A DNA stretch of 64,000 nt from Escherichia coli O157:H7 (GTDB taxonomy: Bacteria > Pseudomonadota > Gammaproteobacteria > Enterobacterales > Enterobacteriaceae): NCBI RefSeq assembly GCF_013167455.1, contig NZ_CP038328.1; one strand, given 5' to 3'. The position numbers were made by a program. Shown in pieces: positions 32,701 through 38,700 of the stretch. The first letter of the stretch is position 1. Each line of letters starts with the position of its first letter.

Positions 32701-35700
32701 ATCGCTGATCACTAAGCAGCTCACTGATACATCATGCTGGACGCGATAATTGGAATCTCACGCAGGGAGTAATGTGTAAATAGCAAAATCGCCTGATGCG
32801 CTACGCCTGTCAGGCCTACAAATAACATACAATTTATTGAATTTTCATGACTTTGTAGATCGGATAAGACGCGTTAGCGTCGCATCCGACATAAATAAAG
32901 CGCACTTTTCTAACAACCTGTGGGGGGGATATAGCCGCTTTATTTCAGGCGCTTACCCGCTTCATCAACCACTTTCTCGCCATCTTCCTTGGTGAATGCG
33001 CCTTTTTGCGCATCTGGCAGAATTTCCAGCACCACTTCTGAAGGGCGGCACAGGCGAGTTCCCAGCGTCGTCACCACAATCGGGCGATTAATCAGAATCG
33101 GGTGCTGAAGCATAAAGTCGATTAACCGATCGTCAGTAAATTTATCTTCCGCAAGGCCCAGCTCCTCATACGGTTCGACGTTTTTACGCAGCAGCGCGCG
33201 TACGGAAATCCCCATATCGGCAATGAGTTTGACCAGTTCATCGCGCGTTGGCGGAGTTTCCAGATAATGGATAATGGTCGGTTCTGTGCCGCTGTTGCGG
33301 ATCATCTCCAGCGTATTACGCGACGTGCCGCAGGCCGGGTTGTGATAAATGGTAATGTTGCTCATATCAGTATCTCATTACAAAGTGAAAGAGAGACGTA
33401 GCGCCAGCGCAGCCAGCGTCACAAACAGCACAGGCAGGGTCATGATAATCCCTGTACGGAAGTAATATCCCCAGCTGATAGTCATATTCTTCTGCGAAAG
33501 TACGTGCAGCCAGAGCAGCGTTGCCAGGCTACCAATCGGGGTGATTTTCGGCCCCAAATCGCAGCCAATCACGTTGGCATAAACCATCGCTTCTTTGATA
33601 ACGCCAGATGCCGTGCTGCCATCAATGGACAACGCGCCAACCAGTACCGTCGGCATATTGTTCATAATAGAAGAGAGGAAGGCGGTGAGGAATCCGGTGC
33701 CGAGCGTCGCGGCCCACAGGCCGTTATCCGCCAGCACGTTGAGTACGCCAGAAAGATATTCCGTTAATCCGGCATTGCGCAGGCCATAAACCACCAGATA
33801 CATGCCGAGCGAGAAGATGACAATCTGCCAGGGCGCACCGCGCAGCACTTTACCCGTATTAATCGCATGACCGCGTTTAGCGACGACAAATAATATCAAC
33901 GCGCCCACTGCCGCAATGGCGCTGACCGGAATGCCGAGCGGTTCCAGGACGAAAAATCCCACCAGCAGAAGCAGTAAAACAACCCAGCCAGTTTTGAACG
34001 TAGCAGGATCTTTAATCGCTTCTGCGGGAGATTTCAGCAGCGCCATGTCGTAGTTCTGCGGAATATCTTTGCGGAAATAGAGATGCAACATCACCAGCGT
34101 GGCAACAATCGCGGCGATATCCACCGGCACCATCACCGAGGCATATTCGCGAAAGCCGAGGCCAAAGAAATCTGCGGAAACGATATTCACCAGGTTGGAG
34201 ACAATAAGCGGCAGGCTGGCGGTATCGGCAATGAATCCGGCCGCCATCACAAACGCCAGCGTAGTGCCTTTACTGAACCCTAAAGCCAGCAGCATGGCGA
34301 TGACAATCGGTGTCAAAATAAGCGCCGCGCCATCATTGGCAAACAGGGCGGCAACGGCAGCACCGAGCAGGACAATCCAGGTAAACAGCAAGCGACCGCG
34401 TCCATTGCCCCAGCGTGAAACGTGCAGTGCCGCCCATTCAAAAAAGCCGGACTCATCCAGCAGCAGGCTGATGATAATAACGGCAATAAACGCAGCCGTC
34501 GCGTTCCAGACGATATTCCACACCACCGGAATATCGCCCGGATGTACTACGCCCGTAACTAACGCCAGTACTGCGCCGAGCGTTGCACTCCAGCCGATGC
34601 CTAAACCTTTCGGCTGCCAGATAACCAATACAATGGTCAGGACAAAGATAGCGCCTGCCAGTAACATAATGCCTCCCGGAAAAACACATGTGCAAATCCA
34701 TATGTGTTTAGATAAATTTTTTAACTACAAGTGTTCTTACTGTCTACGGAACAATTTTGTCTGGCCAGGTTGCGGACAATCACCTGAACCTTTTCCTGTT
34801 CGCATCGCCAGGCCTGCTCAATAATTTTCGCGGCCCATGATGGAATATGCGGTGATAAGCGGTAATGAACCCACTTACCCTGCTTGCGATCCAGCAACAA
34901 ACCGCTTTCACGAAGAAGCGCCAGATGGCGGGAGATCTTGGGCTGCGACTGGTCGAGAGCAGTGCAGAGATCACAGACGCATAACTCTCCCAGCTCGCTG
35001 AGCAGTAAAACGATGCCCAGACGGGTTTCATCGGCAAGAATTTTGAACAGTTGGATGGGTAACAGAAATGACATATTGCGCTCCTGATTGTTGCAGGTAG
35101 TGTCTCTCTTCGAAGCGGATAAGTCAAAAACATATATGGTTTAACGAATGTGTATGTGCAGAGGAAGGTAATAGGTGTGAATTAAGCGTTGGCTATTCAT
35201 TTGAAAGGAGGTCTGAATCAGGACGTAAAAAAACCGACTTTGCGTCGGTTTTTTACTTTCCAGCCCAGAGTTGGTGGCTCTGGCTGGAGTGAGAATGCCC
35301 ACATCTAACGGTTCAATACTATTAGCCAGTGGCTAACATTGCAAGCGTTAGCGATTTCTTCAGCTGGAGAAGGGACAGTTTGCTATACATGTTGGTGAAA
35401 GAGGATTTATATACTTTCATCGGGTCGCTGCCGTACCAGGCTTTGTCCGAATCCGGATGTAAAAAAACCGACTTCGCGTCGGTTTTTTTACTCTTCAGCC
35501 CTGAGTTGGTGGCTCTGGCTGGAGTGAGAATGCCATCATCTAACGCATCAATACTAATACCATACTGAAACTATTGCAAGGACATGCTGGTTTTATAACC
35601 TGAATATACTGTATGATTATCCAGTTAGCTCTGAGGCATTTTCACTCTGGCAATGCGCATAAACGCTTTCAAAGTCCTGTTCAGTGGTACGGGTGGTGCC

Positions 35701-38700
35701 GTTAACTGATGCTCTGGCCGGAGTGAGAATACCATTATCTAACAATAGGGCATGCGCCGTGACAGGCGATGGATGAGTAAGCGGATGCATTCTCACTCCA
35801 TCGTATGGAGAACACGGGTGATTGATAAAGCAATCATCGTTCTTGGGGCGTTAATTGCGCTGCTGGAACTGATCCGCTTTCTGCTTCAGCTTCTGAACTG
35901 ATAGCGGAAACGTAATTAAGGGCAAAGAGCACACCACTCTTTGCCCTTTAACATTTAACGCATGGTCACGAACTCTTCTGCCGCCGTTGGGTGAATGGCG
36001 ACGGTATTATCGAAGTCTTTTTTGGTTGCGCCCATCTTCAGTGCCACCGCGAAGCCCTGCAACATTTCGTCCATACCAAAACCAATGCCGTGAATACCGA
36101 CAATCTTCTCTTCTGGCCCAACGCACACCAGCTTCATGCGGCACGGCTGGCGGTGAGTGGTGACGGCGGTATACATCGCGGTGAAAGAGGATTTATACAC
36201 TTTCACCTGATCGTCGCCGTACTGCTCGCGCGCCTGCGGTTCCGTTAAACCAACAGTACCAATCGGCGGATGGCTGAAGACCACGGTCGGAATGTTGCTG
36301 TAATCCAGATGCTCATCCGGCTTGTTATTAAACAGGCGTTCAGAGAGACGGCGACCCGCTGCAACTGCCACCGGTGTCAGTTCTACTGCACCCGTGTTAT
36401 CGCCCACCGCGTAAATACCTTCAACGTTGGTGTTTTGATATTTATCGACGACGATATAGCCTTTTTCGTTGGTTTTAACGCCAGCGGCTTCGAGGTTGAT
36501 GTTGTCATTGGCAGGCTCGCGGCCAATCGCCCAAATCAGGCAATCCACCGTTTCACTGCGACCATCTTCCAGCTCCAGCGTCAGGCTACCATCGGCATTT
36601 TTCACTACCGCTTTCGGGATGGCGTTGGTGTGCAACTGCGGGCCTTCGGCGTTCATCACTTCGACCAGCGTTTCAGAGATCATCGGGTCGAAGCTGCGCA
36701 GCGGCGCATGTTTACGCACAAACAGATGCGTTTTCGCGCCGAGGCCGTTAATCACGCCAGCCAGCTCAACGGCGATGTAACCCGCGCCAACAACCGCCAC
36801 ACGCTCTGGCAAAGCAGGAAGGGCAAAGAAACCATCAGAATCAATACCGTATTCCACGCCCGGAATATCCGGGTGGCTCGGACGACCGCCGGTGGCGATC
36901 AGAATATGATCGGCTGTGATGGTTTCACCGTTAACTTCCAGCGTTTTGGCATCAACGAAGCGGGCAAAGCCTTTGATTACATCAACGTTATTTTTACCGA
37001 GCACGTTTTCATAGGAAGTATGAATACGGTCGATATAGGCGGTACGGCTGGCGATCAACGTTTCCCAGTTGAATTTATTGATAGTGGTATCAAAACCATA
37101 ATCCGGGCCGTACATATGGATCGCTTCACGGATTTGCGCCGCGTGCCACATCACTTTCTTCGGTACGCAGCCGACGTTCACGCAGGTGCCGCCCAGCTCT
37201 TTGGCTTCAATCAGCGCGCATTTCTGACCGTACATAGCCGCGCGGTTGATGGAGGCGATACCGCCGCTGCCGCCGCCGATGGCGATGTAATCATAGTGTT
37301 TAGTCATGACAGAGTGTCCTTATCGTTGATTACCGCGATTGTAGCGCGAGACGTAATAGGTGCCAGCAATGGCTGCAATTACTCTGGCACGATCCAGCTT
37401 ACGGTGGCGTGCCCGGTGCCAGCTGGAACCAGTTTGCTGTGCAGCCACGGCAGCACGTTATTCATCTGCTGTTCCAGTTTCCACGGCGGGTTAATCACAA
37501 TCATGCCGGAAGCGGTCATGCCACGGCGATCGCTGTCTGGCAGTACCGCCAGTTCAATTTGCAGAATTTTGCGAATGCCGGTCGCTTCCAGGTCGTGGAT
37601 CATGCGCTTAATTTGCTGGCGCAGCACCACCGGATACCACAATGCGTAAGTGCCAGTGGCGAAACGTTTGTAACCTTCTGCTATCCCGCTGACTACCGCC
37701 TGATAGTCGGTTTTCATTTCATACGGCGGATCGATAAGGATTAAACCACGGCGAGAAACCGGCGGCAGTTTGGCCTTAAGCTGCTGGAAACCGTCGGATT
37801 TTTCGACGCGCGCACGGCTGTCTTTCTGAAATTCAGAACGCAGCAACGGGTAATCGCTCGGGTGCAGTTCGGTCAGTTGCAGGCTGTCCTGTTCACGCAG
37901 TAACTGACGGGCAATCAACGGTGAACCGGGGTAGTAACGCAACTGACCGCTACGGTTGAAGTGTTTTACCACATTGATGTACGGCTCCAGCTCCGCAGGC
38001 AAATCGTCCTGCTGCCAGATACGGGCGATACCTTCGAGATATTCGCCGGTACGCTCGGCATGTTCGCTGCCTAACTGATAACGCCCGGCCCCTGCGTGGG
38101 TGTCGAGATAGAGAAACGGTTTATCTTTCTCTTTCAGCGACTCGATGATCAGGCTCTGAACGGTATGTTTAAGGACGTCGGCGTGGTTGCCAGCGTGAAA
38201 GCTGTGGCGATAACTGAGCATGGGTAAAGGTGTTCCGGTAAGTAAAAATCGGCCCGTATTCGGGGCGCACAAAAGCCTATCAGGACAGTATACCGAAAAG
38301 AGGCCGCCGCCGCGAAAGCGTAACGTTTCTCATTGAAATTCACTACACTTAACCCCATGCTACAAACATTATGTAAAGCGCCTGTTGAGCGCTTCCTTAA
38401 CCTCTTTAACCAGGACTGCGCTAATGACGAATCCGTTACTGACTCCCTTTGAATTGCCTCCGTTTTCTAAAATTCTCCCGGAACATGTCGTTCCAGCCGT
38501 GACTAAGGCATTGAATGACTGCCGCGAAAATGTGGAGCGCGTAGTAGCGCAAGGAGCACCGTACACCTGGGAAAATCTCTGCCAGCCGTTGGCGGAAGTG
38601 GACGATGTGTTGGGGCGTATTTTCTCCCCGGTCAGCCACCTGAACTCGGTGAAAAATAGCCCGGAATTGCGCGAAGCGTACGAACAAACTCTGCCGCTGC

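Follow-up and report, generated by a model that had tools for sequence, protein, structure and literature searches.

The segment at 35225-35950 of the window (the whole stretch of 64,000 nucleotides that was analysed) was 100% identical to E. coli O157:H7 chromosomes and is almost certainly the O157:H7 form of the chromosomal dinQ/agrA/agrB type I toxin-antitoxin locus lying between arsR and gor. As shown in Table 1, the arsR-gor placement is that of the dinQ/agrAB system, with agrB adjoining arsR and agrA adjoining dinQ. The locus was found in 5422 of 5426 complete E. coli genomes; dinQ is annotated in the RefSeq record of O157:H7, and agrA and agrB are annotated as ncRNAs in that of K-12. 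Because it carries the Rfam AgrB and NCBIfam toxin_DinQ families, the RefSeq dinQ annotation and a LexA box identical to that of K-12, the locus is the already described, SOS-inducible gene of the membrane toxin DinQ with two antisense small RNAs (sRNAs), and is nothing new in kind. The locus, gene order, peptide, LexA box and type I toxin-antitoxin reading of the initial annotation agree with the K-12 annotation, RefSeq O157:H7, Rfam, NCBIfam and the published work (PMC3567139, PMC5066626).

Table 1. Features of the dinQ-agrAB locus and its flanks (positions in the window)
Feature	Position	Strand	Remarks
arsR	34721-35074	-	flanks the locus on the agrB side
agrB sRNA gene, distal copy	35225-35308	-	Rfam RF02891, 107.2 bits; positional equivalent of K-12 agrB b4713
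putative agrB promoter	35316-35344	-	-10 TAGTAT 35316-35321, 17-nt spacer, -35 TTGCAA 35339-35344; read from sequence
agrA sRNA gene, proximal copy	35459-35543	-	Rfam RF02891, 92.2 bits; positional equivalent of K-12 agrA b4712
putative agrA promoter	35551-35579	-	-10 TAGTAT 35551-35556, 17-nt spacer, -35 TTGCAA 35574-35579; read from sequence
LexA operator TACTGTATGATTATCCAGTT	35607-35626	+	identical to K-12 operator; overlaps dinQ -10 and transcription start
dinQ mRNA	35624-35950	+	+1 = 35624 by K-12 numbering (GUG = +195; PMC5066626)
leader element 1 (U16-C28)	35639-35651	+	identical to K-12
antisense target of AgrA/AgrB (+88..+119)	35711-35742	+	third repeat-body copy at 35711-35743; element 2 inside, 35717-35729
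element 3 (anti-SD), 3-nt loop, element 4 with Shine-Dalgarno GGAG	35790-35801 (element 3), 35805-35810 (element 4)	+	
dinQ CDS	35818-35901	+	GTG start, 27 codons + stop; RefSeq WP_001295215.1 at exactly these bases
bidirectional terminator hairpin	35918-35948	both	common to dinQ (+) and gor (-)
gor	35955-37307	-	flanks the locus on the dinQ side

The two near-identical, terminator-bearing repeats first noticed on the minus strand were recovered at 35211-35324 and 35445-35559; they are 89-91% identical, and each ends in an A-run/stem/T-run terminator. Both copies cover positions 1-84 of the 84 positions of the Rfam AgrB model (RF02891, gathering score 40 bits), with the 5' antisense tail, stem-loop and terminator of that family. 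The agrB and agrA transcripts start with UUAGAU at 35308 and 35543, respectively; the intrinsic terminator hairpin of agrB lies at about 35227-35254, and agrA has its own terminator. The putative agrB promoter is conserved in K-12 and agrees with the consensus at 8 of 12 positions, and was therefore missed by a sigma-70 scan that needs 9 of 12. The putative agrA promoter has the same architecture, and promoters of such kind have been reported for the K-12 sRNAs (PMC3567139). The predicted fold of O157 AgrA was weaker than that of AgrB (-28.2 and -34.7, respectively), and the first stem of AgrA has two non-standard pairs at its base; this might lower the stability of AgrA.

The LexA-like site upstream of dinQ was located as CTGTATGATTATCCAG at 35609-35624. 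The loose motif CTGT-N8-MCAG alone was found 4 times in the window with 2.5 expected, which is not above chance; the 19-mer TACTGTATGATTATCCAGT was unique in the window (0.01 expected) and the same as in K-12. The full operator has the CTG-N10-CAG pattern, an AT-rich spacer and the promoter overlap of a LexA operator, the dinQ -10 being TATGAT at 35612-35617. Across 15 distinct Escherichia sequences, it varied at only 2 positions, 1 of them within the 16-nt box. The K-12 dinQ operator has a heterology index of 4.83 (PMC3567139), and the evidence for LexA binding and SOS induction of dinQ comes only from K-12 (PMC3567139 and its reference 1).

The 27-codon, GTG-initiated single-helix open reading frame encodes MIDKAIIVLGALIALLELIRFLLQLLN and is annotated as dinQ in the identical O157:H7 record, the product being WP_001295215.1, 'damage-inducible type I toxin DinQ'. 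The peptide scored 54 bits on the equivalog model NCBIfam NF041472 toxin_DinQ (cutoff 30, E = 1.4e-14). It consists of a single hydrophobic helix, and A, I, L, V, F, M and G account for 21 of the 27 residues. The GTG at 35818 sits 7 nt 3' of GGAG (35807-35810). All 5 variable sites of the reading frame in the 15 distinct Escherichia sequences were synonymous, and the peptide was unchanged in E. albertii and E. whittamii. In K-12, over-produced DinQ is toxic and is countered by AgrB (PMC3567139); the O157 peptide is identical to that of K-12, but the RNAs are not.

Alignment to K-12 was free of gaps across the entire dinQ transcript, and agrA and agrB were positionally equivalent. The +44 processing site falls at 35667. 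The third copy of the repeat body was indeed present in the plus-strand dinQ leader, where it is 91% identical to the agrA copy and forms the antisense target; 8 of 10 sites in its hypervariable block (+104..+113) varied among the 15 distinct Escherichia sequences. The 14-nt GCATTCTCACTCCA (35787-35800) is exactly complementary to the core of the agrA/agrB repeats, and the sRNAs thus bear the same sequence as element 3. The K-12 dinQ-agrAB system (Weel-Sneve et al. 2013, PMC3567139; Kristiansen et al. 2016, PMC5066626) has the same arsR-gor position, order and orientation, and the same DinQ peptide, LexA operator, elements 1, 3 and 4, Shine-Dalgarno sequence, start codon and spacing. However, identity was 91.7% over the 901-nt query (window 35100-36000), with differences at one base of element 2, in the variable block of each of the three copies of the repeat, in a G at +145 that is predicted to stabilise a competing hairpin in O157, and in the terminator stem, where an A-T to T-A exchange (35924/35942) is compensatory.

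The steps by which such a locus acts have been shown in K-12 (PMC3567139, PMC5066626), and near-identity of sequence suggests the same steps for O157:H7. LexA would sit on the operator overlapping the dinQ promoter, so that dinQ would be transcribed only in the SOS response. The primary mRNA of about 330 nt would not be translated, because element 1 would hold element 2, leaving element 3 to mask the Shine-Dalgarno sequence in a closed hairpin; that elements 1 and 2 pair in this untranslatable full-length mRNA has been shown in K-12 (PMC5066626). Loss of the first 43 nt would free element 2 to capture element 3, and this 2:3 pairing would make the ribosome site accessible for translation of DinQ, an inner-membrane peptide of 27 residues initiated at GTG. 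Two constitutive, divergent sRNAs of about 84 nt, with their first 31-36 nt antisense to +88..+119 of the leader, would bind there in place of element 1, re-close the Shine-Dalgarno hairpin and make a substrate for RNase III. In K-12, 1:2 and 3:4 pairing thus closes the +1 mRNA, 2:3 pairing opens the +44 mRNA, and the sRNA-bound mRNA is closed again (PMC5066626). Expression, binding or toxicity data for the dinQ locus were not found in the literature on O157:H7.

Complementarity between the minus-strand repeat transcripts and the dinQ leader, on which the initial annotation had made its reading depend, was far above chance: against +44..+200, predicted duplexes reached -55.9 for AgrA and -50.4 for AgrB, whereas shuffled sRNA 5' ends gave -25 to -26 +/- 3.2. 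At the 36-nt site, O157 AgrA formed 28/31 Watson-Crick pairs with 1 G-U pair and 2 mismatches (-51.0 kcal/mol) and contained uninterrupted Watson-Crick runs of 11, 7 and 6. AgrB formed 26/31 with 1 G-U pair and 4 mismatches (-45.5 kcal/mol), the mismatches being grouped in the variable block. The A at 35731, specific to O157, mismatched both sRNAs. The same computation for K-12 gave 24/31 and -42.3 for AgrA and 30/31 and -57.8 for AgrB, reproducing the published AgrB value of 30/31. The near-perfect match of the distal AgrB that characterises K-12 was not found here, where the proximal AgrA matches better; this is a strain difference in the cognate paralogue and not a ground for exclusion from the family.

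In K-12, only AgrB counteracts DinQ (PMC3567139, PMC5066626), and AgrA neither binds nor represses in vitro (PMC5066626). The initial annotation had carried this over as an SOS-induced DinQ repressed by AgrB; the locus and the system stand, but AgrB as the repressor is a K-12 result. With the pairing counts reversed in rank here, the name alone does not decide the working antitoxin, and the K-12 rule appears, from the sequences, not to be transferable by name to O157:H7. Because the dinQ leader is matched more closely by AgrA, we propose a dinQ-agrAB locus in which AgrA, alone or together with AgrB, would be the likelier antitoxin in O157:H7, with a probability of about 0.6 that reflects the AgrA-over-AgrB part. 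The energy of O157 AgrA lies between those of the active K-12 AgrB and the inactive K-12 AgrA, so that activity cannot be read from energy.

Comparison across species bears on this assignment. The other 16 tabulated Escherichia sequences always had one well-matched copy (-53 to -65), distal or proximal, and the proximal copy was the matched or sole copy in 11 of the 16. The sRNA 5' end co-varied with the leader target in E. albertii, E. whittamii, Citrobacter, Serratia oryzae and C. amalonaticus, the proximal copy being fully or almost fully paired in each, and this co-variation lends comparative support to antisense control. About one third of complete E. coli genomes have the leader type that matches the proximal copy in sampled loci. 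About 15% of E. coli genomes, ST131 included, have a deletion between the repeats by which both promoters were lost, leaving dinQ without a promoter.

Against this background, it is unlikely that the distal AgrB is the working antitoxin in O157:H7 as in K-12, with AgrA an inactive paralogue. AgrB does occupy the position of the K-12 agrB, whose product alone counteracts DinQ there, and it has the higher Rfam score (107 vs 92 bits) and the more stable predicted fold. However, its pairing is interrupted by the four mismatches in the variable block, its hybrid is close in energy to that of the non-binding, non-repressing K-12 AgrA, and it is the proximal copy that matches the leader in most of the lineages sampled and in the outgroups.

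Somewhat less likely again is a weakened RNA-level control in O157:H7, in which both sRNAs are inefficient, the ribosome site is exposed, and DinQ is checked mainly by LexA or expressed differently from K-12. The best pairing in O157:H7 was the weakest of the 17 tabulated Escherichia sequences (-51.0 vs -53.2 to -65.4), the A at 35731 contributes a mismatch to both duplexes, and the O157-specific G at 35768 (+145) creates complementarity between CGAUGG and CCAUCG (+177..+182). The predicted closed-minus-open energy of the Shine-Dalgarno hairpin was +3.3, +2.9 and +2.4 kcal/mol for the +1, +44 and sRNA-bound states, respectively, from a thermodynamic model that fails to reproduce the published K-12 2:3 duplex in detail. 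The other 16 sequences gave the expected pattern of negative, higher and negative values, and O157:H7 was the only haplotype of the 17 for which the model disfavours the closed hairpin in every one of the three states; if this prediction holds, the leader would not switch in the way published for K-12. The leader haplotype is restricted to 309 genomes. However, nearest-neighbour differences of 3 to 8 kcal/mol are merely suggestive, and the AgrA pairing with its long runs is still a strong duplex. Throughout the clade, the reading frame, the promoter, the LexA box and the two sRNA genes are fixed in intact form, which argues against lost control of a toxic peptide. Chance features or functionless, decaying remnants are ruled out: although the scan for sigma-70 promoters and terminators flagged neither the sRNA nor the dinQ promoters and the loose LexA motif was at chance level, the Rfam and NCBIfam matches exceed curated thresholds, changes in E. 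albertii and E. whittamii are synonymous only, sRNA and target co-vary across genera, and the K-12 locus has been characterised experimentally (PMC3567139, PMC5066626).

Beyond the assignment of AgrA, a broader reading can be offered tentatively. The target and the two sRNA genes may form a three-repeat system that swaps a specificity block of 10 nt, gene conversion being the probable means; through repeated exchange the cognate antitoxin would alternate between the distal and the proximal gene across lineages, with O157:H7 partly mismatched. Since the proximal gene is matched in the outgroup species, it would probably be the ancestral cognate, and the distal AgrB of K-12 the derived state.

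The dql (dinQ-like) loci of Enterobacteriaceae (Kristiansen et al. 2016; NCBIfam NF041473 DqlB) have the same leader architecture, share the Shine-Dalgarno hairpin motif TTCTCACTCCAT-N3-ATGGAG with O157 dinQ, and encode a divergent AgrB-like sRNA, with co-variation between its 5' end and the leader. Their peptides differ from DinQ, such as VKTLIDKVLIVLKALVALLELIRQFID in Serratia oryzae, and a LexA box was absent from the dql loci examined here; O157 DinQ scored 14.9 bits on the DinQ_rel (DqlB) model, below its cutoff of 35. The SOS-induced type I pair tisB/istR-1 of E. coli shares a LexA-repressed gene for a small inner-membrane peptide, a divergent sRNA whose target in a long 5' UTR is remote from the ribosome site, and a primary transcript that stays inert until 5' processing activates it, at +42 compared with +44 in dinQ (PMC5066626, PMC4147584). 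However, the sequences are unrelated, there is a single antitoxin gene, and IstR-1 blocks a ribosome standby site, whereas the dinQ sRNA re-closes the Shine-Dalgarno hairpin. The zorO-orzO and shoB-ohsC pairs also have divergent, non-overlapping sRNAs, which pair with a long toxin 5' UTR that needs processing for translation (PMC5397157, PMC4147584), and a zor 5' UTR segment resembles a plasmid dinQ 5' UTR in sequence (PMC11264685), but their toxins and chromosomal sites are others and they have no LexA control.

agrA and agrB are named by position, and the K-12 finding of AgrB as the sole antitoxin cannot be extended to other strains; this caution for annotation and experiments is the useful part of the finding. 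The O157:H7 leader matches neither copy well, and work on DinQ in persistence, recombination and SOS physiology outside K-12 should check which RNA pairs. If the exchange of specificity blocks is true, the derived A at 35731 and G at 35768 would weaken both the sRNA pairing and the switch that closes the Shine-Dalgarno sequence, and the SOS toxin of this pathogen would be tuned differently and would possibly be leakier.

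The locus between arsR and gor is the already-known dinQ/agrA/agrB type I toxin-antitoxin system, and the initial annotation, which had read it in this way from the sequence, was confirmed in its observation as a whole. Window positions 35100-36000 had 100% identity to several O157:H7 chromosomes, and this region was present in 5422/5426 complete E. coli genomes. As the table shows, the two near-identical minus-strand repeats reported earlier were both full-length matches to Rfam AgrB (gathering score 40), and the third copy of the repeat body was indeed present in the plus-strand dinQ leader. 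In the record of K-12 MG1655, agrA is annotated beside dinQ and agrB beside arsR. The distal copy is therefore called agrB and the proximal copy agrA, in agreement with the names proposed before. The peptide encoded by the GTG-initiated ORF scored 54 bits on NCBIfam toxin_DinQ (cutoff 30); Pfam found no family for the 27 residues.

Features of the dinQ/agrA/agrB locus and other features of the window
Feature	Position	Strand	Remarks
GadY sRNA	10809-10922	minus	Rfam 150 bits, above threshold
ES205 sRNA	16701-16772	minus	Rfam 105 bits, above threshold
shuA/chuA 5' UTR RNA thermometer	26443-26474	plus	Rfam 60.1 bits, above threshold
arsR	34721-35074	minus	flanks locus on one side
agr repeat units (two, ~114 nt each)	35211-35324 and 35445-35559	minus	mutual identity 89-91%
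agrB (distal)	35225-35308	minus	Rfam RF02891 AgrB, full-length, 107.2 bits
gor relic, 53 nt	35384-35436	minus	between agrB and agrA, oriented as gor
agrA (proximal)	35459-35543	minus	Rfam RF02891 AgrB, full-length, 92.2 bits
LexA box TACTGTATGATTATCCAGTT	35607-35626		same as K-12 operator; single occurrence in window
59-residue ORF	35617-35796	minus	wholly within dinQ 5' UTR
dinQ +1	35624		transferred from K-12
dinQ +44	35667		transferred from K-12
sRNA target	35711-35742		transferred from K-12
repeat body, third copy, 33 nt	35711-35743	plus	
Shine-Dalgarno	35807-35810		transferred from K-12
GUG	35818		transferred from K-12
dinQ ORF, GTG start, 27 codons	35818-35901	plus	dinQ in identical RefSeq record
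terminator, bidirectional	35918-35948		common to dinQ and gor
gor	35955-37307	minus	flanks locus on other side

The loose motif CTGT-N8-MCAG was found four times in the window, with 2.5 expected, so that the earlier LexA-like site was not significant by its quoted motif, and the claim stands by identity with the K-12 operator. A sigma-70 promoter and terminator scan of the locus detected none of the three promoters, and its sole terminator was the one common to gor and dinQ. The scan needs 9/12 consensus positions; since the agr promoters match 8/12, we infer them. In the terminator stem, positions 35924 and 35942 are A and T in the window and T and A in K-12 and most other strains, a compensatory change that keeps the hairpin. 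Plus-strand AgrB matches (31 and 22.8 bits) and Spy779816 matches (30.6 and 24.2 bits) were below their respective gathering scores and were discarded; they reflect palindromic A-run/stem/T-run terminators. A second dinQ-like or AgrB-like locus was rejected, as the whole-window Rfam scan gave just two copies. Elsewhere in the window, the shuA/chuA thermometer match indicates the chu haem-uptake locus.

The gor relic had 83% DNA identity to gor at 36170-36222 and corresponds to Gor residues 363-379, and its K-12 counterpart was more decayed, with a 4-nt deletion. The relic suggests that an old duplication or rearrangement had a part in the origin of the repeat unit. Some RefSeq records carry a minus-strand 57-residue 'hypothetical protein' antisense to the dinQ leader (homologous loci L011 483-656, L034 714-887 and L036 715-888), whose counterpart in the window is the 59-residue ORF. 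This is probably a spurious gene call.

In K-12, dinQ is under LexA control, translation is confined to the +44 processed transcript and yields a toxic peptide of the inner membrane, and toxicity is counteracted by AgrB and not by AgrA (PMC3567139). Pairing of element 1 (U16-C28) with element 2 (G94-G106) in the +1 RNA allows element 3 (U167-U178) to form a hairpin that covers the Shine-Dalgarno, element 4. Once the first 43 nt are removed, element 2 becomes available to element 3 and the Shine-Dalgarno opens. AgrB binding at G88-A119 closes the hairpin again and produces a substrate for RNase III (PMC5066626). The alignment was gap-free across the transcript, so the K-12 numbering carries over directly. 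By inference from K-12, this scheme may also apply to the O157:H7 locus. The 14-nt GCAUUCUCACUCCA in the 5' regions of the sRNAs was the same as the element-3 region of the dinQ mRNA, which fits a role of the sRNAs as competitors for element 2.

The window differed from K-12 in which sRNA is predicted to pair best with the leader. The 901-nt region 35100-36000 was just 91.7% identical to K-12 dinQ-agrAB, and the differences clustered in a block of ~10 nt within all three repeat copies. K-12 AgrB and AgrA formed 30/31 and 24/31 Watson-Crick pairs, with 0 and 4 G-U pairs, 1 and 3 mismatches and hybrid energies of -57.8 and -42.3 kcal/mol, respectively. The AgrB value equals the published 30/31; the paper gives 25/31 for AgrA. 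O157:H7 AgrA and AgrB formed 28/31 and 26/31 Watson-Crick pairs, each with 1 G-U pair, with 2 and 4 mismatches and hybrid energies of -51.0 and -45.5 kcal/mol, respectively. Both O157 duplexes were far past shuffled controls (-25 to -26 +/- 3.2). The rank order in O157 was thus opposite to that in K-12, and neither O157 RNA attained the value of K-12 AgrB. An A at 35731, a substitution seen in no leader haplotype but that of O157:H7 (309 genomes), is a mismatch to both sRNAs.

Fifteen further E. coli loci were sampled in even steps down the similarity ranking, and loci of Escherichia, Citrobacter and Serratia located by the Shine-Dalgarno-hairpin motif were also compared. Except for O157:H7, every intact tabulated Escherichia sequence had one sRNA copy with no more than 2 mismatches and a pairing energy of -53.2 to -65.4 kcal/mol. 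The matched copy alternated between distal (agrB) and proximal (agrA) among E. coli lineages: it was distal in K-12, P276M, WCHEC4533 and Nord1, and proximal, with a distal copy also present, in MS6198, YZMc3-1, Z1323CEC0016, PK8275 and E69. In LF4-1, N66, EC12, SCPM, Escherichia sp. E1V33 and E. albertii, the sole copy was of proximal type and matched, and in E. whittamii the two copies paired nearly equally (proximal -57.6, distal -57.4). A proximal AgrB-like RNA was also found by Rfam in one Serratia oryzae, one C. amalonaticus and two near-identical Citrobacter loci, and the 5' end of this non-Escherichia RNA co-varied perfectly with the local leader. As a sequence comparison, this co-variation is good evidence for an antisense mechanism, and the comparison suggests an ancestral antitoxin role for the proximal copy. 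The survey did not bear out a loss of complementarity or of the peptide ORF in homologous loci, and the proposed reading of a DinQ toxin repressed by antisense RNA was supported. The C. amalonaticus locus (L025 7078-7836) has three AgrB-like sRNA genes upstream of a single dinQ-like (dql) toxin gene; only the proximal sRNA matched the leader (-60.6 kcal/mol), and the two distal ones (-44.7 and -48.3) did not and may be orphans or serve other targets.

Among 15 distinct Escherichia dinQ transcripts, +104..+113 was the most variable stretch, with 8/10 sites variable, and the dinQ ORF had 5 variable sites, all synonymous. The DinQ peptide was unchanged in E. albertii and in E. whittamii, and that of Citrobacter was one residue apart (F to Y). 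Escherichia sp. MOD1-EC7003 (L032 ~5179) has a dinQ remnant that kept the Shine-Dalgarno hairpin motif, with the start GTG changed to GGG, the ORF disrupted and unrelated sequence in place of the upstream leader, and dinQ appears to be a pseudogene in that lineage.

The minimum-free-energy fold of the K-12 +44 leader paired element 3 with +146..+154 and not with element 2 as published. Constrained ensembles, with the Shine-Dalgarno hairpin forced closed or the Shine-Dalgarno forced unpaired, were therefore used over single structures. The 16 other tabulated sequences followed the published scheme: the closed form was favoured in the +1 RNA, less so or disfavoured in the +44 RNA, and favoured again with +88..+119 blocked. 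The O157 leader gave closed-minus-open values of +3.3, +2.9 and +2.4 kcal/mol, respectively, and was predicted to be open in all three states. A G at +145 (35768), restricted to the O157:H7 leader haplotype (309 genomes) and absent from every other sampled sequence, creates complementarity between CGAUGG and CCAUCG (+177..+182), and the longer hairpin would capture element 3 and leave the Shine-Dalgarno open. As the model misses some published K-12 pairings, this prediction is a lead and not a result.

Shares of leader types among complete E. coli genomes were taken from ranked samples and identity bands. The O157 type was present in 309 genomes (5.7%), leaders 95-99% identical to it, which match the proximal copy in sampled loci, in about 35%, the K-12 type in about 30% and a repeat-fusion form in about 15%. 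In the latter (AHB1 and NR1441; L013 and L014), the agr repeat body was joined straight to the dinQ-leader repeat body ~100 nt upstream of the dinQ GTG. This deletion between direct repeats removed the promoters of both agr and dinQ, together with the LexA box and about the first 87 nt of the leader, leaving the dinQ ORF intact without a visible promoter. The same 65% coverage signature was seen in genome matches H76-H84 (ST131, NC101 and UPEC). NR1441 carries L16Q, the sole amino-acid change seen in E. coli DinQ. In EC12 (L015 361-1443), an IS481-family element separates the single agr gene from the dinQ promoter, and in P276M (L035 1-385) IS1 replaces the arsR side. In N66, AHB1, NR1441 and EC12, arsC and not arsR adjoins the locus, so that both arsR and arsB seem to be absent.

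Of two predicted asRNAs, T1TAdb picked the one with the higher stability (PMC8594479), and neither the O157 variant nor antitoxin switching or block exchange was described in the literature searched. The comparison adds a strain-level caveat on which sRNA is cognate, together with evidence for an exchange of the specificity block among the three repeats.
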